From positions 32,001 to 96,000 of the IMG/VR virus record IMGVR_UViG_3300032308_001297: 64,000 bases of DNA; one strand, given 5' to 3'. The stretch comes from a virus. The position numbers were made by a program, and so were the translations under genes. The notes beneath the pieces were generated by a model, which was not told the DNA's origin, did no database searches, and worked only from the letters and a program-made list of their open reading frames with translations. Below, piece by piece: positions 20,472 to 35,947 of the stretch. Positions within the stretch are counted from its first letter, which is position 1. Each line of letters starts with the position of its first letter.

Positions 20472-21404
20472 TTAGTCAACACTTAATTGTCTTTTTGTTT
20501 GTAAAAGATACTGTTCTCTAATTTTATCGCCGAGTTCTATATAACAGCAATCGCCACAATTTCGACCAGTAACAAGATAGTTAAGAACAGCGTTTTTGTA
20601 ATTCTCTACAGGACTTTTATTAGTAAGTTCAGAAACATCTACATCGAAGTTATGTAACAAAACCACAGCATTATAAACATAAGACATATCATTGTTATGT
20701 TTGAGTTCACTCTCTCTGAGAAATTCATAGTATTTATCAGGACGTAGCTTACCAAGACTATAAAGAACAGAATAAACGGTGCCGAGTTTATTACCCAGGT
20801 TTCCGGATTTAAAAATGTCACCCACGTCCGATACAAAACCATTGAAAGATATATCCTCTATAGAAGTTTTATCCCAAATAAAATTCCAATCATTCTTAAT
20901 CATATACTCCAGAAGGTATAAAAGTTCTCCTGGGTTTCCTTCGTCTAGATATTTTATCCTACCACAAGTATAATCAAGAACGAAATAATACTGCTGATTT
21001 TCTTTATCGTAGTTCTCTGCTTTAATAATCTCTACAGAGGACATTTCAAACTCTTCTGAGTTCTCGATGATAGAAAGTTCTTTTACTCCACAAGATCCAA
21101 TAAAGTCAGTAAACTGTGGCTGGTATTTCTCTTGGAAGATACCAACCTTTCCCTCGAAGCATCTCTTGCTTACATATGGACCCATATAGAAAACGTCTGA
21201 GAAAGAAAGAATGTTATAGCCATAAAGGTTTAATTGTGGATCATTACTAAGGAACTGACCATGATATGGAGCTCCTGCTCCTTTATAATAATACTTATCG
21301 CCTTTTGATACTCTACCATTAACGTGATGTAGATTGTCTTTAAAATCTAAGACATTAGTTTTTTCGCCATATTGATTGTAAATTGGAACAGTTGTCATAT
21401 TCAC
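20472..21404 (-). CDS. Hypothetical protein
   Basis: 310-aa ORF; no recognised motif. Confidence 0.7.
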   Translation of the reverse strand: MNMTTVPIYNQYGEKTNVLDFKDNLHHVNGRVSKGDKYYYKGAGAPYHGQFLSNDPQLNLYGYNILSFSDVFYMGPYVSKRCFEGKVGIFQEKYQPQFTDFIGSCGVKELSIIENSEEFEMSSVEIIKAENYDKENQQYYFVLDYTCGRIKYLDEGNPGELLYLLEYMIKNDWNFIWDKTSIEDISFNGFVSDVGDIFKSGNLGNKLGTVYSVLYSLGKLRPDKYYEFLRESELKHNNDMSYVYNAVVLLHNFDVDVSELTNKSPVENYKNAVLNYLVTGRNCGDCCYIELGDKIREQYLLQTKRQLSVD

Positions 21405-21964
21405 TCGCTATAATGCAGATAAGAACTCAATAGATACTTATCGCCTTTTAATACCGGAGCACCAGCGTGAGGATACATCCAGAAAGGAGGAAACATCAAT
21501 AGATTTCCTTTGATTGCTTGGAAATGCATATTCATGTTTGTGATAATAGTATCTCCTCCATCTTCTGGAGTGTTTAGATACCAAAAGAAAATCATAAACC
21601 GTTTACCGGAAATAAGATCGTTCGAATCAATGTGTTCATCGAAACGATCTTGCCCTCCTTCGCGATAATGTTTAATTCTAAACTGTTCAAATGCGAAATT
21701 CTTTGGCCAGAATTTAGTTTCTGTAACATCCTTACGATACTTTTCGATACCATCGAACGCACGTTCAACCAAATGCTGATGGAGTTGGGGGTGTATTAAT
21801 TTATGTCTACTGAAATTTAATTGTGTCATATTGGGAAATCCACCATCATCATATCTGATATGAAGATCTGGTTTCCATTTAAACATCGCTATCAATTCAT
21901 CACAAATATCTTCTTCTAAATGATTAGAATAAGACTTACAATAATCGTGAAGAAAAGAAGACAT
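21401..21964 (-). CDS. 2OG-Fe(II) oxygenase (prolyl-4-hydroxylase-like)
   Basis: EHID, WYLN..DGGDT, FPPFWMYPHAG, KY. Confidence 0.85.
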   Translation of the reverse strand: MSSFLHDYCKSYSNHLEEDICDELIAMFKWKPDLHIRYDDGGFPNMTQLNFSRHKLIHPQLHQHLVERAFDGIEKYRKDVTETKFWPKNFAFEQFRIKHYREGGQDRFDEHIDSNDLISGKRFMIFFWYLNTPEDGGDTIITNMNMHFQAIKGNLLMFPPFWMYPHAGAPVLKGDKYLLSSYLHYSE

Positions 21965-22058: not shown

Positions 22059-22286
22059 TCATAATTTATCTTTAATAATTGCTGTTGAAGTTTCTCTATC
22101 TATTAGCATTTTTCCATAACAACAGATATTCCAATCATGTCCATCATATTCGCTAAATGATGGAACATTTATTTGCACATGCTTAAAAAGATATTCTTTA
22201 TCTTCTTCGAACACACGCCAAACATGTTCAGCAGTTCCTCTTCCTGACATACCTCTAGTTTTATTAAACCTTATACGGTATTTCAT
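22059..22286 (-). CDS. Hypothetical protein
   Basis: 75-aa ORF coupled to the upstream oxygenase. Confidence 0.65.
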   Translation of the reverse strand: MKYRIRFNKTRGMSGRGTAEHVWRVFEEDKEYLFKHVQINVPSFSEYDGHDWNICCYGKMLIDRETSTAIIKDKL

Positions 22287-22882
22287 ATTACCTCTGCTGG
22301 CGGCGGAGGAGGAATATAATCTTTAACAGTTATATTAAAGTGTAATACTTTCATATATTCTTTATTAAGATGATCAGCAATCCCATGAGGAATCCATGAA
22401 TTTGATAAAACCAATAATCCAGGATATGGTTCTAATGATACCATTTCACTAGCATATGTAATATCATTTTTATTCTTTTGTGGTAAGTTTATCTGATTCT
22501 TACCAGGTCTAGGATCGAAGAATAATATTCTACCGCAATTTATAGGAACGTCAATAAAATAAAACCCAGACATATGAACATAACCAGAATGAACATGTTG
22601 CGCCATATAGCTATGTTTAGGGTATACCTGTAACCACATCTCGTTTAAACGAGTTTGTAATCTATTCATCGCATAACCCTGAGAGTCTAATATATCCCAA
22701 GCATTCTGCGCTACATGACTAGCAAAATTCTGCACCCTAATATCAAAAGCAAAGTTTTCTGATTGAAACATTTGTTCACCAGAAAAATTGTCATAATTTT
22801 TAGAAACTTCTTTTATAGATTCTAAAAATATTTTACAATCTTCTGTATATATTGAACTATGAAAACAATCAAATTTTTCCAT
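22283..22882 (-). CDS. Putative 2OG-Fe(II) oxygenase (TIGR02466-like)
   Basis: HVH..MSGFYFI, FFDPRPG, SWIPH, HFN. Confidence 0.75.
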   Translation of the reverse strand: MEKFDCFHSSIYTEDCKIFLESIKEVSKNYDNFSGEQMFQSENFAFDIRVQNFASHVAQNAWDILDSQGYAMNRLQTRLNEMWLQVYPKHSYMAQHVHSGYVHMSGFYFIDVPINCGRILFFDPRPGKNQINLPQKNKNDITYASEMVSLEPYPGLLVLSNSWIPHGIADHLNKEYMKVLHFNITVKDYIPPPPPAEVI

Positions 22883-26583: not shown

Positions 26584-27237
26584 TTAGAAAGTTGAGTGCT
26601 GCTCAACTGCAATAAAGTATTCTATATCCTTTCCAATGAACTTGGAAATACCTCTAGAAGAAATTGTTACCTCGTAATCTCCTGGAAGCATCTTGAAGTT
26701 CTCAAACTTAAACACTGCATTGAATGACTTGTTTGTTTCTCCAATCGGAATAGAATATTCACTACCTGGATTCTTAGAATTAATTGCCTTTAGATGAACC
26801 TTACTACCATCACCAGCAACAACAATCTCTGGCAAACTCCAAACACCAGCTGCTTTCTCGACCTTAATAAGGTCTTCATTCTTTAGTGTGAACGTAACGT
26901 CAACTGATGGGATATTAATATCCTTATCTGGAGCCTTTGTGATTGTGCTTTCGTCTGATAGAAGGAACTTACCCTGCTCTGACGAAGAGTCCTTCATATA
27001 AATGAAAGTGTCATCGATTTCCAAATCAGGATCATTGTATAGACTTAGACCAGAAAGAAACTGGTTAAGATCATAGATGGCAAACTTCTTAGTAAACTCT
27101 GTCGGAACAGTAGCCTTTGCCATGATAGTCTTATTTGGGGAAATGGTTTTAAGAACATTTCCCTGTTGAACAACAATAGAAGGATTAATCTTAGAGAAAT
27201 TCTTCAAAACATTTACTGTATTAACATCAATCTTCAT
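26584..27237 (-). CDS. 45: Sliding clamp gp45
   Basis: LKNFSKINPSI, FAIYDLNQFL, PGDYEV, YFIAVE; synteny. Confidence 0.92.
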   Translation of the reverse strand: MKIDVNTVNVLKNFSKINPSIVVQQGNVLKTISPNKTIMAKATVPTEFTKKFAIYDLNQFLSGLSLYNDPDLEIDDTFIYMKDSSSEQGKFLLSDESTITKAPDKDINIPSVDVTFTLKNEDLIKVEKAAGVWSLPEIVVAGDGSKVHLKAINSKNPGSEYSIPIGETNKSFNAVFKFENFKMLPGDYEVTISSRGISKFIGKDIEYFIAVEQHSTF

Positions 27238-28130: not shown

Positions 28131-28340
28131 TTATGCTACAATAAAACTTTTAAATTTACAAGTGTTACAATGAACTGCTCTTTGCGGAGGAATTGAAGCT
28201 GTTACTACTGAGGGATTAGTGTCTTGTAACTCATCTCCGCAATGGGGACAAGCAATACCTGTTCCCAAATTAATAAAATGAGACATATATTCTCTGCGAC
28301 GTCGTTCGTTATAATCTTCAAAAGATTTCAATTCTTTCAT
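28131..28340 (-). CDS. Zinc-ribbon protein
   Basis: CPHC...CNTC. Confidence 0.6.
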   Translation of the reverse strand: MKELKSFEDYNERRRREYMSHFINLGTGIACPHCGDELQDTNPSVVTASIPPQRAVHCNTCKFKSFIVA

Positions 28341-28729
28341 TTCAAATCCTTATAATGATCTGCATACAACATCATTAATACGTAATGAAGAACCTTTAAT
28401 AGATCTGCTTTATTGGCGCCTTTCTTTTTACCATAGCGCCAAAGATATTTGATAGCAGTATTTCGGAAGGTTGGCATAGAATCACCAAGAGCTAACCACA
28501 CATCGAAACATTCTATATTCTGCTCTTCAGTCATATAATGTTGCCCATATGTCTTGTCAATATAGGCATGGAAGTCACGAATAATTTCGTCTTCCTTGTA
28601 TTTATATTTAGGCGGGACGGTTCCAGAAGAATTTATTGTTGCATTAAATCTTTGACCATTTTCAAACATATAATCTGAACCAACAGCTCCAGTTGATCCA
28701 GTTGGTCCTAACGAAAATCTATTTGTCAT
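28337..28729 (-). CDS. DUF3310-like protein
   Basis: TYGQHY, AIKYLWRYGKK, DLLKVLHY. Confidence 0.75.
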   Translation of the reverse strand: MTNRFSLGPTGSTGAVGSDYMFENGQRFNATINSSGTVPPKYKYKEDEIIRDFHAYIDKTYGQHYMTEEQNIECFDVWLALGDSMPTFRNTAIKYLWRYGKKKGANKADLLKVLHYVLMMLYADHYKDLK

Positions 28730-29265
28730 TTTACCTCCAATTGTTTCATAATATGTTCAATAATCTTCTCTTGATCCATAAAACAATTATTATTAAAACG
28801 TTCAACATTAAACATTAACATCATATTTGAAAGAATATTAGCAATCTTGGTTTCACGACCCTGTAACCAAGTTTCGTTCTGATTACTACCACGCTGTCTG
28901 TAACGATCTTTTCGAATTTCACTCTCAGTCTGCAGATAAATGATCTCTAATTCATAATTCTCTAAACAATGTTCAAGGAAAGATGATGTGAAAAGGCGAT
29001 CGCCTTCATAAAGAACGACTGCATCTTTATTTAAACTTGCTAGGAATTTAATTGCTTCTGGCTGAACAGCCATTGACATACGATCAGTCCCAGAGAACGT
29101 TTCGCCTTCGTCATACTTACCAAGGATATAATTATAATCGTATTGTAGATACGGAACAAGTTTTACTTCATCATAAACTTTGAGCCAATTATATTTCTCA
29201 ATAATCTTCTTCATAAGAGTGGACTTACCGGAACCTGGTTCGCCACCAATCGCAATAACTTTCAT
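28726..29265 (-). CDS. P-loop nucleotide kinase
   Basis: GGEPGSGKST, GTDRMS, EGDRL, RGSNQ. Confidence 0.8.
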   Translation of the reverse strand: MKVIAIGGEPGSGKSTLMKKIIEKYNWLKVYDEVKLVPYLQYDYNYILGKYDEGETFSGTDRMSMAVQPEAIKFLASLNKDAVVLYEGDRLFTSSFLEHCLENYELEIIYLQTESEIRKDRYRQRGSNQNETWLQGRETKIANILSNMMLMFNVERFNNNCFMDQEKIIEHIMKQLEVK

Positions 29266-30251
29266 TATGTAAACCTTTCAAGTCCGACCAACTCAGGCTC
29301 AACAAACAAACCTGTGCAATCTAGAATGCCACTTTCACTATATAAAGCCATTTTACTATTGTTTATCTGATTTGTCAACAGTTTATTATTTAGAGTCTCA
29401 TTACGAGCATCCCACATTGGTTGCCAATCAATACCACTCCATCCATCAGATTCGCACTTAGCAATTTCTTCAGCTTGACGATCAAGATAATATCCAAGGT
29501 AACGACCATGCTTTACTCGGAATAGTTTCTTGAAAGAACACAAGCATGTTTCCATATCAAAGTAATCAGTGTCAGGATAATCTTTCTTTACCTCTTGCAG
29601 AATTTCTCTTGCAGATTCATCTAGATAATTTAGTTCTTTTGAAGTTAGTTTGGCATCATACCAATCAGGTCTACCAACAGCCATACAAAGACCATTACGA
29701 TGGGAACGAGAACCAGAATAATCTTCTAGCATTAAACTACCAGGTTCTAATGGAAGTTCGCAACATTGTTTCAATGTCTGCATATAGAACCAAGTAGAAT
29801 ACCTGCCGAACTTATGGAACTTGGTCTTAACCTCATCCCATAATCTATTAAAGTTTTCATCAGGATTTTGAAGAAGGAATGGTCTGAATGCTTCTATCTG
29901 CGAACGATTGCCAATCCATTCCTTATAAGATATAAATTGTGCAGGAAGATGACCTTTATTCCATTTAGTGTCTATTTGGTAACGGAGTCTTTTGTAATTG
30001 TGGTTGTTCCATTCTTTTAGACGGTCAACGCCAACTAACTCCATATCAGGAAACTCGTTCCATATCACCCATGTTGTAGGAAAGAAATATGTTGTTCCAT
30101 AGATCCAAGCAATCCAGAGTTTCTGCTCTGTATTATGCTCGAATCTATCGAACAAGTAATTGGTCATAAAGATAGCGGGGTCGCAATCTTTAATGGAAAG
30201 CGACCACCGATACCAGTTTATGAAGTCTTGCTTACGCTGCTCTGAATTCAT
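29265..30251 (-). CDS. alpha-glutamyl/putrescinyl thymine pyrophosphorylase clade 2 (amino acid:DNA transferase)-like
   Basis: DCDP, W..W.YG.TY, KFGRYSTWFY (HhH-like), SRSHRNGL, METCLCSFKK, RYLGYY.DR. Confidence 0.75.
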   Translation of the reverse strand: MNSEQRKQDFINWYRWSLSIKDCDPAIFMTNYLFDRFEHNTEQKLWIAWIYGTTYFFPTTWVIWNEFPDMELVGVDRLKEWNNHNYKRLRYQIDTKWNKGHLPAQFISYKEWIGNRSQIEAFRPFLLQNPDENFNRLWDEVKTKFHKFGRYSTWFYMQTLKQCCELPLEPGSLMLEDYSGSRSHRNGLCMAVGRPDWYDAKLTSKELNYLDESAREILQEVKKDYPDTDYFDMETCLCSFKKLFRVKHGRYLGYYLDRQAEEIAKCESDGWSGIDWQPMWDARNETLNNKLLTNQINNSKMALYSESGILDCTGLFVEPELVGLERFT

Positions 30252-31527
30252 ACGTTTTTGTATCAATAAAAGAAGGAAGATATCGAATTTCGATATCGAT
30301 ATCGGATCTTACATACTTCAGAGCGTTCTTTAACTTGCGTTCATGGTCATGTCTCTTCTCATAATTATCTAAAGAATTATGACTGATTAGCATAATACCT
30401 TTAGTAACTCCCATTTCGCCCAGCTTATTAAGAATAGCACCAACACCATTATTGTAACTGGCGTTCGAACTGATACCAATGATCGCTATATTTTTCTCTG
30501 ATCCAGGATTATACTTTTTGTCAAGTTTCTTTACTTCTGCAGAAACCTCATCGTTTGTCCACTTCTTAAAGTTATGAGTCTTGAGAATTTCTTCTTCCTT
30601 AATATTCTTTTTAATAGCAAGAAGATTACCAGAAATTTCGTTAGGACTCCAATACCTGTTTAGGTTGGCTAAACATACATCAGAAAAATACTTAGAATTA
30701 ATATCACCACCAATACGATCGTAAAGATTCAATATTGCTTTTTTACAATCTTCTTTAGTGTTTCCTTTTTTAATTTTTTCCTGATGATTCATCTCGTAAC
30801 CAAAATCATCATAATTGGCTTGAGAGTCTTCAAACTCAGAACTGTTAATGTAGATTGCTGGAATATTTGTCCATCCTGCTTTAAGAGCAGCATAGCTAGT
30901 ATGATTGCCATCCAAAATTAATTGGCGATCAATTTCAACACAAATAATGATAGGAGAAATACTGTTTCTAGCTCGAGCAGGATCAGAAACCATTCTTTCT
31001 TCAATCGAGTCTACATGTTTCTGATCAAATTGCTCCAAACGAACTTGGTTTCTTGGCAAGATAGATAGTTCTTCGACATTAGCTTCTACAATATCATAAT
31101 AACCACTTTCGATTCGTTGTTTGACCCGCATAACCAAATTGTGGTTTGCGACCCTCAGTGCGCTATTGTCTTCGTTAATAACTTCTTTAGTATTAAGCCA
31201 CTTAGTTGCTGAAGAAATAGCTGATTCTGAAAGATCTTCAACGCTACCCATTCCTTTACCGCCACCCTGATTATTGTTATACCATTTTGGGTTAGAAGCA
31301 GCCTTTACTTTTGAAAGAATATAATGTTCTAGAGCCAAACATTCTTCTCTAGATCCACGCCAAATAACGCTCTTACGTAGTAGCCCATTAGACCATGCAT
31401 GTTTTAATTCAAAGTCTTTAGAGGAAAAGTTATAGTTGTCATCTTCGTTTTCTGTTTGATGAAAACCTACGTATCTTTTACCATTATTAATATTAAACCA
31501 GCCATAGACGATAGCTTCGTATGTCAC
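30232..31527 (-). CDS. GIY-YIG-like plus ParB/Srx-like fusion protein
   Basis: N-terminal IVYGW..NGKRYVG..E..WYN; central PIII...ILDGNHT. Confidence 0.65.
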   Translation of the reverse strand: MTYEAIVYGWFNINNGKRYVGFHQTENEDDNYNFSSKDFELKHAWSNGLLRKSVIWRGSREECLALEHYILSKVKAASNPKWYNNNQGGGKGMGSVEDLSESAISSATKWLNTKEVINEDNSALRVANHNLVMRVKQRIESGYYDIVEANVEELSILPRNQVRLEQFDQKHVDSIEERMVSDPARARNSISPIIICVEIDRQLILDGNHTSYAALKAGWTNIPAIYINSSEFEDSQANYDDFGYEMNHQEKIKKGNTKEDCKKAILNLYDRIGGDINSKYFSDVCLANLNRYWSPNEISGNLLAIKKNIKEEEILKTHNFKKWTNDEVSAEVKKLDKKYNPGSEKNIAIIGISSNASYNNGVGAILNKLGEMGVTKGIMLISHNSLDNYEKRHDHERKLKNALKYVRSDIDIEIRYLPSFIDTKTYEFRAA

Positions 31528-31554
31528 TTGAGTTCTCCATTAACTTAGAGATAT

Positions 31555-31582
31555 AGTATACTACATTTTTAAAAATTTTCAA
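31555..31582 (-). promoter_or_regulatory. sigma70-type promoter for the GIY-YIG/ParB gene
   Basis: TTGAAA-16 bp-TATACT; -10 within the palindrome TAGTATACTA. Confidence 0.5.
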
Positions 31583-32099
31583 CACCTTTATACTCGACGA
31601 AACATTCGATACATCCACCTTTACCTTTACGATTCATTTGTTTCCAAATATACGAATCAATATTATCCATATCATTTTCTAGAATGTCTGGTCTCAATAG
31701 AACAAACATTGCAAGCTGTGCTGTTTTCTGTCTGCAGATCATTTTAAATCCGTATTTCTCATAGAATGGAACAGCGTCTAGTTCTGCGGACACTCTGAAA
31801 TAATCAGCCTTATTATCAAAAGCGTATTGTAATGCGTAGTCACAGAGAAGAGATCCAACTCCTCTGCCACGAAACTTATAGAAGGTATGAAGTAATTGTA
31901 GATTAGCTACTAATGGTTGACGTTTAGAAACAGTAACAACGATAGCACCAGCTAACTCGTCGCCGTCCCAAGCTCCCATCAATAGACTCCAATCATTCAT
32001 CATATCACATTTGGATACGAATCTCTTAGCGAATCTATCTTCTTTTTTATCTGTTAGATGAGCAACAAATTCCTCACGACTGGTTTGTCGCAACTTCAT
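31569..32099 (-). CDS. GNAT acetyltransferase
   Basis: RGRGVGS acetyl-CoA motif, AVPFYEKYGF; start moved to ATG 32099. Confidence 0.85.
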   Translation of the reverse strand: MKLRQTSREEFVAHLTDKKEDRFAKRFVSKCDMMNDWSLLMGAWDGDELAGAIVVTVSKRQPLVANLQLLHTFYKFRGRGVGSLLCDYALQYAFDNKADYFRVSAELDAVPFYEKYGFKMICRQKTAQLAMFVLLRPDILENDMDNIDSYIWKQMNRKGKGGCIECFVEYKGVENF

Positions 32100-32961
32100 G
32101 GAATTCACGCTGCTTCTTGCCTCTTGATTTGTCATACTTTGTCTTTTCCCAAGCAAGATACATTTCGTGATCATATTTAAATTCTGGGAAAGTATATTTG
32201 TCGTTCATTAAAATTTCTTGAACGTCAGGTCCACCATTAAGAGCAGCATCAATAAACTTCTCAACAAATTTAAACGAGTCTTCTATTTCCTTGCGTTTAA
32301 TAGAAGAACGGAAACAACGGAACTCAATTGTTCCTGTGTGCTTCATACAATATGTATTGATTGCATGCCGGAAAGGACGACCCATAGAAACGCCATCTTT
32401 ACCAGCAGCATGCAAACGAATAAAATCTTCAAAATTATTTGCTAGATTAATAATATTAGCGCACATATAATCTGGCATAGGACGACCGCCATCCCATTTC
32501 AGATAAGTCTTAGCAGTCTTAGAACGAGACATATTTGAATCTTGTTGAAACTGATAACAACGATCAATAACGACGTGCTGATTTTCCTGGATATATTTCA
32601 CAAGACGTTTTAGCGATTCAATGTCGTCTTTTAATCCTGGAACGTATACGTGAAGATGACCATGGTTGACGCATGAAGCAGTAGGACTATCCCCGTTTTT
32701 TTCAAAAACATTGTATATATCAAATATACGATCGACCTGCTCCTGCCACGTTTTAGTTGGTTTGGTATTAACCTCTCCACCAACTGGTGGTTGCAACCCT
32801 AAAGGATCGCAAGCAAGACCACGATAATCACCATTAAGATTTACAATATCCGTTTCTGCATATTCCCATTTACCAAGATGTTCTGGTATAACTAGATCTC
32901 TTGATATATCACCCCATTCAATTTCAAACCCCCATGTAAAATTCTTTGGGTCATACTTCAT
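32074..32961 (-). CDS. Putative amidoligase (COOH-NH2 ligase/glutamate-cysteine ligase-like)
   Basis: TWGFEIEW, GGEVNT, HGHLHV, GTIEFR. Confidence 0.8.
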   Translation of the reverse strand: MKYDPKNFTWGFEIEWGDISRDLVIPEHLGKWEYAETDIVNLNGDYRGLACDPLGLQPPVGGEVNTKPTKTWQEQVDRIFDIYNVFEKNGDSPTASCVNHGHLHVYVPGLKDDIESLKRLVKYIQENQHVVIDRCYQFQQDSNMSRSKTAKTYLKWDGGRPMPDYMCANIINLANNFEDFIRLHAAGKDGVSMGRPFRHAINTYCMKHTGTIEFRCFRSSIKRKEIEDSFKFVEKFIDAALNGGPDVQEILMNDKYTFPEFKYDHEMYLAWEKTKYDKSRGKKQREFHEVATNQS

Positions 32962-33641
32962 TGTAAATCCTCAACCATTGGAAATTCATACTTATTATAG
33001 CTTATTAATTTAAATTTTTCAACAATAAAAACTTCATACATAGGAGCAGCTACTTGAATAGTCAGTCCACTTCTTTTAAGAATATCTTTTGTAGAAGCAA
33101 ATATAATACCATTTTCTCCATATGAATAATGCAATGGCCTAGCTTCGTTACGAAAAGCAGTAATTACTTTATCTTTATCTAAAGTGCATACAGACATACT
33201 TGCTGGACGAAACTTATGTAAAGGAATTTCTCCAGCCTCTAAACATCGAAGAATTAATTCGCTATCATTCTTTGTGATAACATCATATCCAAAAGTTCCT
33301 TTCCAATTTTCTGGATTTTCTTGAGAAATAACTCCATTATGAGCAATAGAAAGTTCTTCTGACGCCATTGGTTGATTGTAAGCAAGATCGCTAGTTGAAT
33401 AACGAACATGACCAATACAATAAAGATTACCATCTTCATTGACCCAACTAGGAATGTCTTGATTGTTTATAAATGTGCAAGCATTAACAGGTTCTTTAAT
33501 AGTGTGAACCTTGCCACCCTTAACATAAGAAACTCCAGTGGCATGTTTACCACGGATCATTGATTGAATAAAGAGCCGACGAACAAGTTCGAACTCTTGC
33601 TCGCTCGGTTTCTTTATCGCTATTCCTAGCACACCACACAT
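32958..33641 (-). CDS. Class II (Ntn) glutamine amidotransferase
   Basis: MCG N-terminus, RG..ATG, GHVRYST, NQP, HNGVI, DSE, RPL. Confidence 0.88.
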   Translation of the reverse strand: MCGVLGIAIKKPSEQEFELVRRLFIQSMIRGKHATGVSYVKGGKVHTIKEPVNACTFINNQDIPSWVNEDGNLYCIGHVRYSTSDLAYNQPMASEELSIAHNGVISQENPENWKGTFGYDVITKNDSELILRCLEAGEIPLHKFRPASMSVCTLDKDKVITAFRNEARPLHYSYGENGIIFASTKDILKRSGLTIQVAAPMYEVFIVEKFKLISYNKYEFPMVEDLQ

Positions 33642-35014
33642 TAGAAAAATGACTCCAACGAAGCTATCTCAGTTCCACCGTATGGATCTTTCATATCATG
33701 AGCAGTAAGATAGTCATACCATTCTTTATCTTCCCACATTCCTGGTGAAACTCCATTCCACAACGGACGATGTAAAGGATGATCTTTATTGGTACGACGA
33801 TCTTCTACAAATTGTTTACGTAACATTTCGTAATTATAAGATTGTAATTCTAACATCTTTTCTCGGAAATAGCAAACTACAGATATTCTTTCATTAGTAA
33901 CATCGTCCGGATTGTTAAGAACAATAGGAGTATTACCATGAATGATTTCGTGGTTGTTAACAAGGAGCAAATCGCCGGGACGAACATTAACAGCAATACG
34001 ATATTCAGGAAATACAAGATAGCCTCCAGTGTATTCTCCAGTCCCAAGAACTAGAAGATTTGATAGACCTGCATCAAGATCACCAGCATCTCGATGACAA
34101 GCAGTGCGGAAAGTTTTATTTACTGTAATAGTAGTGAATACTGTTTCAGGAACTAAGAAACGTGGATCAAGTTTATCTGCTGCTGCTTTCTGATTACCCC
34201 AACGCCAAGGTAGTAAATCCTTGAAACCTCTATTTAATGATTGGAGGAATGGATATGCAAGTTCAAATAATTCTGGATGTTTTTCAGTGTATGACGTTGC
34301 ACGCCCGTAAGGAATGCGAGGGTAACGATCGTACCAACCAGCAACACCTGAGAATACTGACTTTGCATAGTTAGTTGTTGATGCCCATTTTTCTGCAACC
34401 ATTCTTGCTTCTTCATAGACATCCTCCTTAGATTTATTAGATAAACCATCAACCCATTTATCAAACCAACCATGATATTCTGGATATACTTTCTGAACTT
34501 CTGAACGTAGCCAAACAGTGCCACGTGTTTCGTCAACTGGTTTATATTTAGGATCGTTATACTTTGCGCGAATACTTTCAATTGAATTATCTTCGAATAA
34601 CGAAGCACCATCATTCATCAAGAACTCAAGAACTTCCATTTGATATGGTGAAACCCAATCTCTGCCACCACGTCCTTCAGTGGAAAGCATTTCACCACGT
34701 GGACCAGCAGCAAGACCACGATTCTGACTTTCTGTTGCAGCGCCTCTCAGACCACGATAAGCACTATCCTGTTCTTCTTTAGTGAAGTAATTTTTACGAA
34801 ACTTGAATGCAATACGTAATTCATCATTACCTTTATCACAATCTTCACAATCCTTCATACCACAATCTGCTTTCTCAAGCGGATCGCAAAGCGGAGGCAT
34901 ATAACAATCAGTATCTTCCTCGATTAATTTATCGTAATGACTTTCATCGACGAAAGTACCTAATAGATGTTCGCAATCATGTTTTGTCTTTGCTACAATG
35001 CGTCTTACCATCAC
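33641..35014 (-). CDS. TET/JBP-family 2OG-Fe(II) dioxygenase
   Basis: FTTITVN..RTACHRDAGD (HxD), GGYLVFPEY, HEIIHGNT, RISVVCYFRE. Confidence 0.82.
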   Translation of the reverse strand: MMVRRIVAKTKHDCEHLLGTFVDESHYDKLIEEDTDCYMPPLCDPLEKADCGMKDCEDCDKGNDELRIAFKFRKNYFTKEEQDSAYRGLRGAATESQNRGLAAGPRGEMLSTEGRGGRDWVSPYQMEVLEFLMNDGASLFEDNSIESIRAKYNDPKYKPVDETRGTVWLRSEVQKVYPEYHGWFDKWVDGLSNKSKEDVYEEARMVAEKWASTTNYAKSVFSGVAGWYDRYPRIPYGRATSYTEKHPELFELAYPFLQSLNRGFKDLLPWRWGNQKAAADKLDPRFLVPETVFTTITVNKTFRTACHRDAGDLDAGLSNLLVLGTGEYTGGYLVFPEYRIAVNVRPGDLLLVNNHEIIHGNTPIVLNNPDDVTNERISVVCYFREKMLELQSYNYEMLRKQFVEDRRTNKDHPLHRPLWNGVSPGMWEDKEWYDYLTAHDMKDPYGGTEIASLESFF

Positions 35015-35391
35015 TCATCCCCATAAAGAATAGATTTAATATCAGGCGGTCTCCAACCATCTGGTTTTAAAATCTTACCATCAGCACGACGAACTGGTTT
35101 TCCATCAACTAATTTTGCCATGTTTGATTTATGCACTTCGGCGAACACTTTATCGAGGGGAATACCGTAAGATGCAGCAGTGCCACACACAATGTAAATA
35201 ATATCAGCGAGCTCTTTAGCAATATTCTCCACATCGTTTTTGCACTCTCCTTGAATGTATTCTTCATATTCTTCCTTTAGTAATCTAAGTCTAAGTTCAC
35301 GTTCTGCTGGATCAGGAAGTTCTGGCTTTACACCAATATTCTGACCAACTGCTGTTTGAAAATCTTTAACATCTTGAAACATATTACTCAT
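35011..35391 (-). CDS. MazG-like/PRA-PH NTP pyrophosphohydrolase
   Basis: EEYEE, KELADIIY, VHKSNMAK, R.DGKILKP. Confidence 0.85.
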   Translation of the reverse strand: MSNMFQDVKDFQTAVGQNIGVKPELPDPAERELRLRLLKEEYEEYIQGECKNDVENIAKELADIIYIVCGTAASYGIPLDKVFAEVHKSNMAKLVDGKPVRRADGKILKPDGWRPPDIKSILYGDE

Positions 35392-35947
35392 TCATCCACT
35401 CCGGAGGGTTGCGTTTCTTCCAACTATGAAGATGAGTTTTACCCATCTTATAATAATTACGATAATTTGTTATGGGATCTGATGAAATAATATATTCGTC
35501 AGCCATACAAGAAGGCATAGTTGTCATATCATACTCTTCTAGTTTCTTAGGCGGAGACTGAAGCATATAAGATATCTCACCAAAACATTTATGTTGCTTT
35601 TCATAACGATGAGTGTATTCTTGCATCAATGCAAAGAAATGATCAACTAACCAATTATAATTCTCGATACTTGTGCGAGCCCAGACAGCACTCGGATGAT
35701 TAATGTGCGTAGCTGAATATATAACTTCTTCACGTGCATCTCCTAATAGCCACCATTTTTTCTTGCGAGTTTTTATAGATCCATCTTCTTGTTCAACCTG
35801 GACTTCTAACTGTATTTCTCTACCATCGAGAATACGATGCGCAGTAGAAAGAAGCTGAGCAGATTCTAAGATCATCTTCACAACGTGACGATCTACCATC
35901 CACTCTGCTGCTGTTACAGGATTTTTATCAAGATAAAAGATGTTCAT
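35384..35947 (-). CDS. Pyrimidine-dimer DNA glycosylase (DenV-related) family
   Basis: MNIFYLD, HVVKMILESAQLLSTAH, THINHPSAVW, YRNYY. Confidence 0.75.
   Translation of the reverse strand: MNIFYLDKNPVTAAEWMVDRHVVKMILESAQLLSTAHRILDGREIQLEVQVEQEDGSIKTRKKKWWLLGDAREEVIYSATHINHPSAVWARTSIENYNWLVDHFFALMQEYTHRYEKQHKCFGEISYMLQSPPKKLEEYDMTTMPSCMADEYIISSDPITNYRNYYKMGKTHLHSWKKRNPPEWMNE

Follow-up and report, generated by a model that had tools for sequence, protein, structure and literature searches.

A candidate TET-initiated thymine hypermodification cassette beside the replisome genes of an uncultured T4-like phage

The chemistry by which a kinase and an amino acid:DNA transferase (AADT) hypermodify phage DNA is established for phages M6, ViI and PaMx11 (PMC8989533). 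A related arrangement has been recognized in gene neighbourhoods. Lee et al. (NAR 2022, PMC8989533, Fig. 2 sequences 22-25) reported metavirome contigs in which a TET_JBP gene replaces the dUMP hydroxymethylase beside a 5-hydroxymethyldeoxyuridine (5-hmdU) DNA kinase (5-HMUDK) and aGPT-Pplase2; amidoligase and glutamine amidotransferase (GATase) genes are also present on these contigs, with their roles left unassigned. Burke et al. 2021 (PMC8256090) found that phage TETs have P-loop kinase, aG/PT-PPlase, ParB and clamp-loader genes in their vicinity, and O'Toole et al. (PNAS 2026, PMC13229309) showed that clade C1 phage TETs make 5-hydroxymethyluracil (5hmU), with one subclass, linked to GATases, P-loop kinases and AADTs, requiring a ParB-fold partner on double-stranded DNA. 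Here we describe a cassette of this kind in a 64,000-nucleotide stretch (hereafter, the window) comprising bases 32001-96000 of the 162,364-bp IMG/VR virus record IMGVR_UViG_3300032308_001297, which is judged 98% complete. The cassette kind is already in print (Lee 2022; Burke 2021; O'Toole 2026), and a first, sequence-only reading of this DNA was right to say both that such neighbourhoods had been predicted and that the product is unsolved (PMC8989533, PMC13229309). What is new relative to the published work is a natural series of gene drop-outs, a set of clamp-type C-terminal tails, and the link of a ParB-like gene to the amidoligase.

Nine coupled minus-strand genes span window positions 28337-35391, with overlaps of 1-4 nt and otherwise gaps of at most 41 nt:

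33641..35011, minus strand: TET/JBP-type Fe(II)/2-oxoglutarate (2OG) dioxygenase (5mYOX), 456 aa; Pfam Tet_JBP; tail ...ASLESFF
32958..33641, minus strand: stand-alone class II (N-terminal nucleophile, Ntn) GATase, 227 aa; Pfam GATase_6
32074..32961, minus strand: carboxylate-amine ligase of the glutamine synthetase (GS)/GCS2 fold (Amidoligase_2-like), 295 aa; a putative accessory tailoring enzyme
31569..32174, minus strand: GNAT acyltransferase (GNAT1), longest open reading frame (ORF) 201 aa; tail ...KGVENF; the true start may be an internal Met
30232..31527, minus strand: 431-aa accessory protein, here called ParB-like; GTG start preceded by GGAG, after a 41-nt gap; no Pfam family
29265..30266, minus strand: AADT (former aGPT-Pplase clade 2), 333 aa; tail ...VGLERFT
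28726..29265, minus strand: P-loop kinase, candidate 5-HMUDK, 179 aa; Pfam Ploopntkinase3
35011..35391, minus strand: MazG/PRA-PH-like nucleoside triphosphate (NTP) pyrophosphohydrolase; Pfam PRA-PH 1e-17; a non-constant neighbour
28337..28729, minus strand: DUF3310 protein; phrog_480 4.6e-24, Pfam DUF3310 1.7e-4 (below cut-off); facultative, downstream of the kinase

The sequence-only reading had described co-oriented, mostly overlapping genes with intact catalytic motifs next to replication genes, and all of these features are present. The eight genes it named are likewise all there, but it omitted the ninth, at 30232-31527, which encodes the 431-aa protein. The genome has a T4-like backbone: the gp45 clamp, gp44/62 and RegA genes lie downstream of the cassette, gp46/47, gp55, UvsW and UvsY upstream, and one complete relative encodes the T4 gp23 capsid protein. 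A nucleotide search of the locus against deposited phages returned no match. The operon adjoins the replisome genes, and we consider it moderately probable that its purpose is post-replicative hypermodification of thymine. The product to be expected would most likely carry a nitrogen-bearing, acylated side chain on a thymine oxidised within DNA. The clusters of Lee et al. and Burke et al. share with this cassette a TET_JBP gene in place of the hydroxymethylase, 5-HMUDK, AADT, amidoligase and GATase, and some of their contigs carry T4-type clamp-loader and capsid genes; they differ in being computational neighbourhood lists that give no amidoligase, GATase or GNAT steps and no product.

The enzyme identities rest on the matches given below, and from them we infer every reaction of a scheme that, taken as a whole, we judge to be fairly probable. 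The dioxygenase would first hydroxylate thymine of the phage DNA to 5hmU, and the P-loop kinase would phosphorylate the new hydroxyl. The AADT would then attack C6 through its Cys/Glu pair, expel the phosphate and add a nitrogen nucleophile, most likely glutamine-derived nitrogen from the Ntn amidotransferase, yielding 5-aminomethyluracil. In the fuller cassette of the window, the GS-fold amidoligase would join a carboxylic or amino acid to this amine; by analogy with GS, gamma-glutamylcysteine synthetase (GCS) and PuuA, the donor could be glutamate. The GNAT would acetylate the remaining free amine to give an undescribed acyl-aminomethyl-uracil. The ParB-like protein may help load or activate the enzymes on double-stranded DNA, and the likely purpose of the modification would be to shield phage DNA from host nucleases.

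The dioxygenase matches Tet_JBP (PF12851) with an E value of 1.6e-22 and 79.9 bits (cut-off 34.9). The profile built from 23 homologues matches human TET2 (6e-6) with the AHRD, H..T and RISLV segments aligned, and both the iron triad (H307xD309, H359) and the 2OG-binding R376 are invariant in these homologues. The ATG at 35011 overlaps the MazG stop as TGATG, and a C-terminal extension of 76 residues past C381 contains the conserved residues W419, N420, G421 and W432. As to the substrate, the 98%-complete genome encodes ThyX and has no match to C5-methyltransferases (PF00145) or to ThyA/hydroxymethylase (PF00303), families for which control genomes gave matches, or to a dCMP hydroxymethylase family. 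A dUMP hydroxymethylase and a C5-methyltransferase, the two enzymes that the sequence-only reading had singled out for a genome-wide search, are thus each without a family match. Given ThyX and no C5-methyltransferase or ThyA-type hydroxymethylase, thymine in DNA is therefore the likely substrate. Thymine would be made and incorporated normally, with TET acting on T in DNA as the only evident source of a hydroxymethyl-pyrimidine, and we propose that the enzyme is likely a thymine-to-5hmU hydroxylase. Clade C1 phage TETs with such neighbours yield 5hmU in E. coli (PMC13229309).

Three cultured phages, Stenotrophomonas phage DLP6, phage C48C1 and Caulobacter phage Cr30, encode TETs that are 47-51% identical to that of the window. 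The DLP6 gene adjoins a TET-associated glycosyltransferase (TAGT) and an NTP transferase, the C48C1 gene adjoins a UDP-galactopyranose mutase, and the Cr30 gene is accompanied by an AADT, a weak TAGT match and an inositol-1-phosphate synthase. TET homologues thus sit with different tailoring sets, and the dioxygenase is therefore a modular entry step. GenBank labels these cultured-phage TETs as 'SNF2 DNA repair protein', which looks wrong.

The next two enzymes belong to families with characterised members. The kinase matches Ploopntkinase3 (PF18751; 5.1e-13, 49.4 bits against a cut-off of 27) and phrog_800 (6.6e-17), carries the Walker A motif GEPGSGKST, and is 25% identical to the 5-hmdU DNA kinase M6 gp54 (pairwise E 7e-4). 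The AADT matches Pfam ADDT (PF18724, renamed aGPT-Pplase2) at 2e-23 and 83.7 bits against a cut-off of 26.2; the TET/JBP and aGPT-PPlase2 assignments, on which the sequence-only reading depended, therefore both score above their Pfam cut-offs. The invariant residues E239 and C243 have aligned counterparts in the Det7 (ViI-type) enzyme and in the ETxLC motif (ETVLC) of M6 gp51, and the corresponding Glu/Cys pair is essential in M6 gp51 and ViI gp247 (PMC8989533). By tblastn the AADT is 27-32% identical to Ackermannviridae homologues, with the ViI (serine) type nearest (E about 1e-27). ThyX without PF00145 or PF00303 matches, an M6 gp54-like kinase and the retained Glu/Cys pair all support the order that the sequence-only reading gave for the early steps, namely post-replicative TET/JBP hydroxylation, kinase activation and substitution by the clade-2 transferase. 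The nearest characterised AADT type, catalytic residues included, is that of Salmonella phage ViI (gp247 serine:DNA transferase, gp67/gp243 kinases), at 27-29% identity; this phage differs in using a dUMP hydroxymethylase and a pyridoxal phosphate-dependent decarboxylase, and it lacks TET, GATase, amidoligase, GNAT and the ParB-like gene.

The remaining enzymes would supply and elaborate the side chain. The GATase matches GATase_6 (8.5e-11, 42.4 bits against a cut-off of 27), and its family profile aligns with the PurF glutaminase domain from Cys1 (4.5e-5); a single-sequence search of the Protein Data Bank (PDB) found nothing. The C2 nucleophile and the glutamine-site residues R80, N102, G103 and D126 are invariant in relatives, a pattern that marks the protein as a true glutaminase and more than a thiol peptidase. 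The amidoligase scores below the Pfam cut-off for Amidoligase_2 (1.1e-3, 19.3 bits against 22), weak matches to this family occur in 12/23 of its homologues, and its nearest Atlas clusters are Amidoligase_2 (PF12224; score 0.96-0.98). Searches of PDB sequences with the single sequence and with a profile found nothing. Its AlphaFold2 (AF2) model (mean predicted local distance difference test, pLDDT, 85.8) retrieves YbdK (1.4e-4) and 1tt4 (4.7e-5) in Foldseek, followed by glutamine synthetase and gamma-GCS, all of one superfamily, and the predicted fold confirms the identity of the enzyme. The GNAT matches Acetyltransf_10 (2.7e-13, 50.5 bits against a cut-off of 23.6) and has the acetyl-CoA motif A, RGRGVG. 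By tblastn against 50,697 deposited phage records, the GNAT has no match; the amidoligase has only two distant hits among deposited phages. One distant amidoligase homologue (26% identity) is encoded at L071:7890-9002 in the jumbo Vibrio phage 2.275.O, in a neighbourhood for 7-deazaguanine modification of DNA where its gene adjoins QueF-like, QueC-like, Ntn-aminohydrolase and GTP cyclohydrolase I genes.

The strongest guide to the roles of these enzymes is a comparison of related cassettes, which were collected in three IMG/VR samples, one each around the ParB-like protein, the GATase and the AADT. ORFs were labelled by hidden Markov models (HMMs); plain tblastn misses divergent GNATs and ParB-like genes, and HMM plus jackhmmer labelling was required. 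TET, AADT and kinase occur together in 90 distinct cassettes, of which four run off a contig end and the other 86 are assessable. The GATase is present in all 86, constant like TET, AADT and kinase, and a GNAT of one of three sequence types occurs in 82/86. The amidoligase is found in 66/86, so that 20/86 have a GATase without it, and none of the assessable cassettes has an amidoligase without a GATase. The ParB-like gene, fused to either a GIY-YIG-like or an HNH-like-motif domain, is present in 51/86, all of them among the 66 with the amidoligase and none among the 20 without it. A strict seven-gene cassette, suggested by the ParB-centred sample alone, was corrected by the GATase- and AADT-centred samples. 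Mapped on the AADT tree, the amidoligase shows a minimum of 10 changes of state and the ParB-like gene a minimum of 19; when 8 independent pairs are compared, the ParB-like gene goes with the amidoligase in about 7 and the reverse is never seen (sign test, median p 0.016).

The smallest member of the series is a five-gene form, TET-GATase-GNAT2-AADT-kinase, in the same pdf-g187-MazG ... DUF3310-g288-gp45 locus of a close relative. Identity to the window is 85% for TET, 91% for GATase, 84% for AADT and 97% for the flanking g288, and there is no ParB_N or family match anywhere in this 146.6-kb record or in four others of the type. The GATase is universal and the amidoligase is not; the GATase therefore cannot exist solely to feed the amidoligase, and its retention in cassettes without one makes glutamine-derived nitrogen the most likely AADT nucleophile. 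From these patterns, the transferase probably receives its nitrogen from the GATase. A scheme that employs all five core enzymes would, at its simplest, consist of oxidation of T to 5hmU, phosphorylation, nitrogen substitution and acetylation, by which, we infer, the core would reach the product of PaMx11 by a shorter route. In PaMx11 (5-acetylaminomethyl-dU; gp46 AADT, gp47 flavin adenine dinucleotide (FAD) lyase, gp48 acetyltransferase, gp49 kinase) there is likewise a kinase, an AADT and an acetyltransferase, and in both systems 5-aminomethyl-dU is a likely intermediate capped by the GNAT. The differences lie in the route: PaMx11 incorporates 5hmdU at replication and obtains its amine via glycine and the flavin lyase, whereas we propose for the window 5hmU formation by TET on DNA, an amine from the glutaminase and an added amidoligase step; no FAD enzyme is present there.

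In the close relative with the five-gene form (L076:9681-10322; also in L119, L132 and L138), a single 213-aa GNAT2 with tail ..SLESFLS takes the place of the amidoligase-GNAT1-ParB-like block. Further variants stand beside this series. In one sublineage (L018:12312-12737, L033, L048, L064), AADT and kinase are separated by a conserved ORF of 130-158 aa in which Pfam finds no family. A fourth cassette type (L094:2658-3749, L097, L151, L221) encodes the GATase, then a 363-aa ORF without a Pfam family, then a distant amidoligase of about 30% identity, and has no recognisable GNAT.

The position of the cassette beside the clamp genes acquires a possible meaning from the C-termini of its enzymes:

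26584..27237, minus strand: gp45 sliding clamp; Pfam gp45-slide_C 1.4e-16; a proposed docking platform

Only three of the 415 ORFs of the window's genome have L[ED]xF within the last 8 residues, and these are the gp43 DNA polymerase (..NLEDFFND), the TET (..SLESFF) and the AADT (..GLERFT); the GNAT ends ..GVENF. Across relatives, the strict tail motif is present in 106/121 TETs (88%), 87/123 AADTs (71%), 25/30 GNAT2 proteins (83%) and 19/78 GNAT1 proteins (24%; 55/78 with a looser pattern), as compared with 25/932 background ORFs (3%) and about 0% of GATases, amidoligases, kinases and ParB-like proteins. The residues directly before the tail differ in length and sequence among relatives, and gp43 of three related phages ends in ..SLEDFFG, ..TLEDFFV and ..SLESFFG. 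In T4, gp43, gp55 and gp33 bind gp45 via interchangeable C-terminal epitopes (Geiduschek and Kassavetis 2010, PMC2988020). The tails resemble these epitopes in being hydrophobic and acidic, in following a variable linker, and in being shared with the phage's own DNA polymerase; they differ in that the motif here stands on base-modifying enzymes, for which gp45 binding is our proposal. TET, AADT and GNAT are, on this resemblance, probably held on gp45 sliding clamps left on new DNA. The late sigma factor gp55 of the window's genome (41044-41601, minus strand) ends ..GVEKFSEVEENDEE / ..VGVEKFSEVEENDEE, a tail akin to those of the GNAT and AADT and in keeping with a clamp-binding epitope.

These observations can be joined, tentatively, into a clamp-tethered assembly line. 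TET, AADT and GNAT would ride gp45 behind the fork, GATase and AADT would place glutamine nitrogen on the thymine methyl, and the GS-fold ligase, with a nuclease-derived, ParB-fold loader, would build an amide-linked (e.g. gamma-glutamyl) chain, giving an undescribed base. We regard this combined picture as possible rather than likely. If true, these would be the first base-modifying enzymes to use the polymerase's clamp-binding tail.

Several points weigh against the proposed chemistry and its tethering, and they temper the moderate confidence that we place in the former. The chemistry is read from gene content in an uncultured phage, and among the deposited phage records searched, no genome has this ParB-like protein, a close amidoligase or the full cassette. 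Every characterised AADT transfers amino acids (Ser, Gly) or putrescine, not ammonia (PMC8989533), and wherever GATase and amidoligase are both present they are adjacent and translationally coupled, with a 4-nt overlap in the window. The amidoligase, GNAT1 and ParB-like genes adjoin one another, and linkage, not function, may account for their being gained and lost together. As for the tails, the motif was defined after they had been seen, and about 2-3 chance matches are expected among 415 ORFs by our estimate; the strict motif is found in few GNAT1 proteins, and the kinase, which must also act on DNA, has no clamp tail at all.

The ParB-like protein is where the most substantial alternative arises. 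Its AF2 model (pLDDT 86.4) has a GIY-YIG-like domain (aa 4-86), a nucleotide-binding-type ParB/sulfiredoxin (Srx) domain (141-251), a helical segment (256-318) and an alpha/beta C-terminal domain (321-430), the last without a clear structural match. In Foldseek the model retrieves ParB, Noc and KorB first (E 4e-6 to 2e-4, probability 1.00). With VIA, residues 141-251 match PadC (Z 8.6), sulfiredoxin (8.5) and KorB (8.4), and residues 4-86 match I-TevI (Z 6.2, root-mean-square deviation 2.7 over 79 residues). The family profile matches Noc at E 0.002, and Pfam ParB_N is matched by 21/36 family members. The CTP-binding GERR box is not found in the protein, where an invariant DGNHT (G207-N-H-T) aligns to AGERR of Noc. 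Pfam GIY-YIG is undetected in the window's protein and scores 0.0021 in one relative; judged by motif spacing, the position of its catalytic Arg appears to be held by an invariant Asp30. We identified 58 metagenomic homologue clusters, no tblastn match in the deposited phage records, and, with the ParB-like profile against 185,579 prokaryote species genomes, nothing that would offer a host or prophage lead. Conserved as part of the cassette, the protein is an accessory that accompanies the amidoligase block. Two variants of the slot deserve mention. In L079:4351-5802, L095:3658-5142 and L111:9154-10635 it holds a protein of about 490 aa in which Pfam finds nothing; an HNH-like motif, HLDHIVP..G, lies close to its N-terminus, and it also has a ParB/Srx motif of the DGNTR type. 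In L061:9995-10450 and L062 (record G001), from two samples, the gene is cleanly cut to 151 aa, the GIY-YIG-like part, and the cassette is otherwise intact.

Instead of such an accessory, the 431-aa protein could be an obligatory activator of the dioxygenase on double-stranded DNA, as in the 5mYOX176/ParB176 pair, with no later role. The likeness is considerable: ParB-fold partners switch on clade C1 T-dioxygenases that neighbour GATases, P-loop kinases and AADTs (PMC13229309), the pair shares with the window a TET with a C-terminal extension (the window's 76 aa after C381 being the long extension of that subclass), a co-located ParB-fold gene, GATase, kinase and AADT neighbours and no C5-methyltransferase, and the solved structures nearest to both partners are the same ParB CTPases (ParB/Noc/KorB). 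Yet the 85%-identical TET of the five-gene form sits in a 146.6-kb, 86%-complete record without any ParB_N or family match, and ParB dependence is therefore doubtful. The ParB-like gene is also missing from 35/86 cassettes and present only alongside the amidoligase, one lineage retained just the 151-aa GIY-YIG-like part, and the TETs of Cr30, DLP6 and C48C1 are without such a protein. Finally, the partner itself differs. As the paper describes it, the partner in that subclass is built of a nucleotide-binding domain, linker and C-terminal domain, with N at the Q52 position (N-x-R) and the GERR-box Arg kept, whereas the window's protein has an additional N-terminal GIY-YIG-like extension of about 147 aa, a different C-terminal domain, Q161-V-R163 (Q-x-R) and G207-N-H-T. 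Obligatory activation is thus a serious alternative that we nevertheless think less probable than an accessory role.

A second alternative concerns the order of the late steps. As in ViI, M6 and PaMx11, phosphorylated 5hmU could receive a free amino acid from the AADT; the amidoligase would next activate the carboxylate of this amino acid, the GATase would deliver ammonia to convert it into a carboxamide, and the GNAT would acetylate the amine. This order agrees with the substrates of the characterised AADTs (Ser, Gly or putrescine; PMC8989533) and with the ViI (serine) type as the nearest relative of the window's AADT; moreover, the GATase adjoins the amidoligase in every cassette that has both, and a stand-alone glutaminase beside an ATP-dependent carboxylate-activating enzyme makes a sensible amidation pair. 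The sequence-only reading had favoured much the same order, an amino acid that is installed and then amidated by GATase and amidoligase, and here it does not hold up well: 20/86 cassettes, including a very close relative, keep GATase, AADT, kinase, TET and GNAT without an amidoligase, and in these the GATase would lack an acceptor enzyme. The absence of any amidoligase without a GATase makes the dependence one-way. On this evidence we find the amino-acid-first order rather unlikely and retain glutamine nitrogen as the preferred nucleophile. The monoisotopic masses computed for candidate nucleosides are 258.085 (5hmdU), 257.101 (5-aminomethyl-dU), 299.112 (5-acetylaminomethyl-dU), 315.107 (glycinyl-T) and 345.117 (O-seryl-T), while N-acetyl-O-serinamide-T and glutaminyl-T are isomers (386.144).

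The remaining two alternatives are very improbable. A separate note had read the 431-aa gene as a possible selfish GIY-YIG homing endonuclease landed inside the operon. The N-terminal domain does fold like I-TevI, the gene has its own Shine-Dalgarno sequence after the 41-nt gap, and a genuine Seg-like GIY-YIG ORF lies between AADT and kinase in one relative (L036, 2396-3043); unlike that insert, however, the gene occupies one slot across dozens of cassettes, with 25-50% identity, moves along with the cassette where gene order is permuted, has no Pfam GIY-YIG match and apparently an Asp at the catalytic Arg position, is fused to a conserved ParB/Srx domain, and is replaced in other cassettes by an unrelated fusion of an HNH-like motif to a ParB-like domain. 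That the dioxygenase targets 5-methylcytosine (5mC), as phage TETs of clades A and B do, and that the cassette modifies cytosine is equally hard to credit: phage TET/JBP enzymes can oxidise 5mC (PMC8256090) and O'Toole et al. saw some in vitro activity on both T and 5mC (PMC13229309), but the genome has neither a C5-methyltransferase nor a dCMP hydroxymethylase family match, and no substrate other than 5hmU is known for the kinase and AADT families that act downstream (PMC8989533).

The genes that flank the core are less constant. MazG and DUF3310, which the sequence-only reading had counted as cassette parts, prove to be optional neighbours: among distinct cassettes whose flanks are long enough, MazG is next to TET in 36/93 and DUF3310 comes after the kinase in 42/91. 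A role for MazG as a dTTP-excluding enzyme was considered and rejected because TET needs incorporated thymine and MazG is optional. Upstream of MazG, a 187-aa gene (window 35384-35947, minus strand), syntenic with the cassette in the nearest lineage, has a weak match (E 9.6e-4) to Pyr_excise, the T4 endonuclease V-type pyrimidine dimer glycosylase. At window positions 21401-21964 and 22283-22882 (minus strand), downstream of the replication genes, are two more 2OG-Fe(II) oxygenase genes, of the families 2OG-FeII_Oxy_3 and 2OG-FeII_Oxy_5. The T4 late-promoter motif TATAAATA occurs at 9 sites versus 6.7 expected, none usefully placed. A scan for sigma-70 promoters and terminators was at chance (37 versus 36.8), and a promoter of its own for the 431-aa gene is neither supported nor refuted.

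In summary, hypermodified DNA lets phages escape restriction and CRISPR nucleases, and the enzymes that make it are of use in labelling DNA and in sequencing chemistry. Experiments on TET-initiated thymidine pathways have so far demonstrated no step beyond the first, in which 5hmU is formed with or without ParB, and the cassette described here offers two testable mechanistic leads past this point, the gene drop-outs and the putative clamp-docking tails. Near-identical phages that carry the five-gene core, the core plus the amidoligase, or these plus the ParB-like gene form a natural series, a ready-made drop-out experiment that predicts intermediates. If the tails bind gp45, this would explain both the fast genome-wide reach of a post-replicative pathway and the position of the cassette beside the clamp genes.

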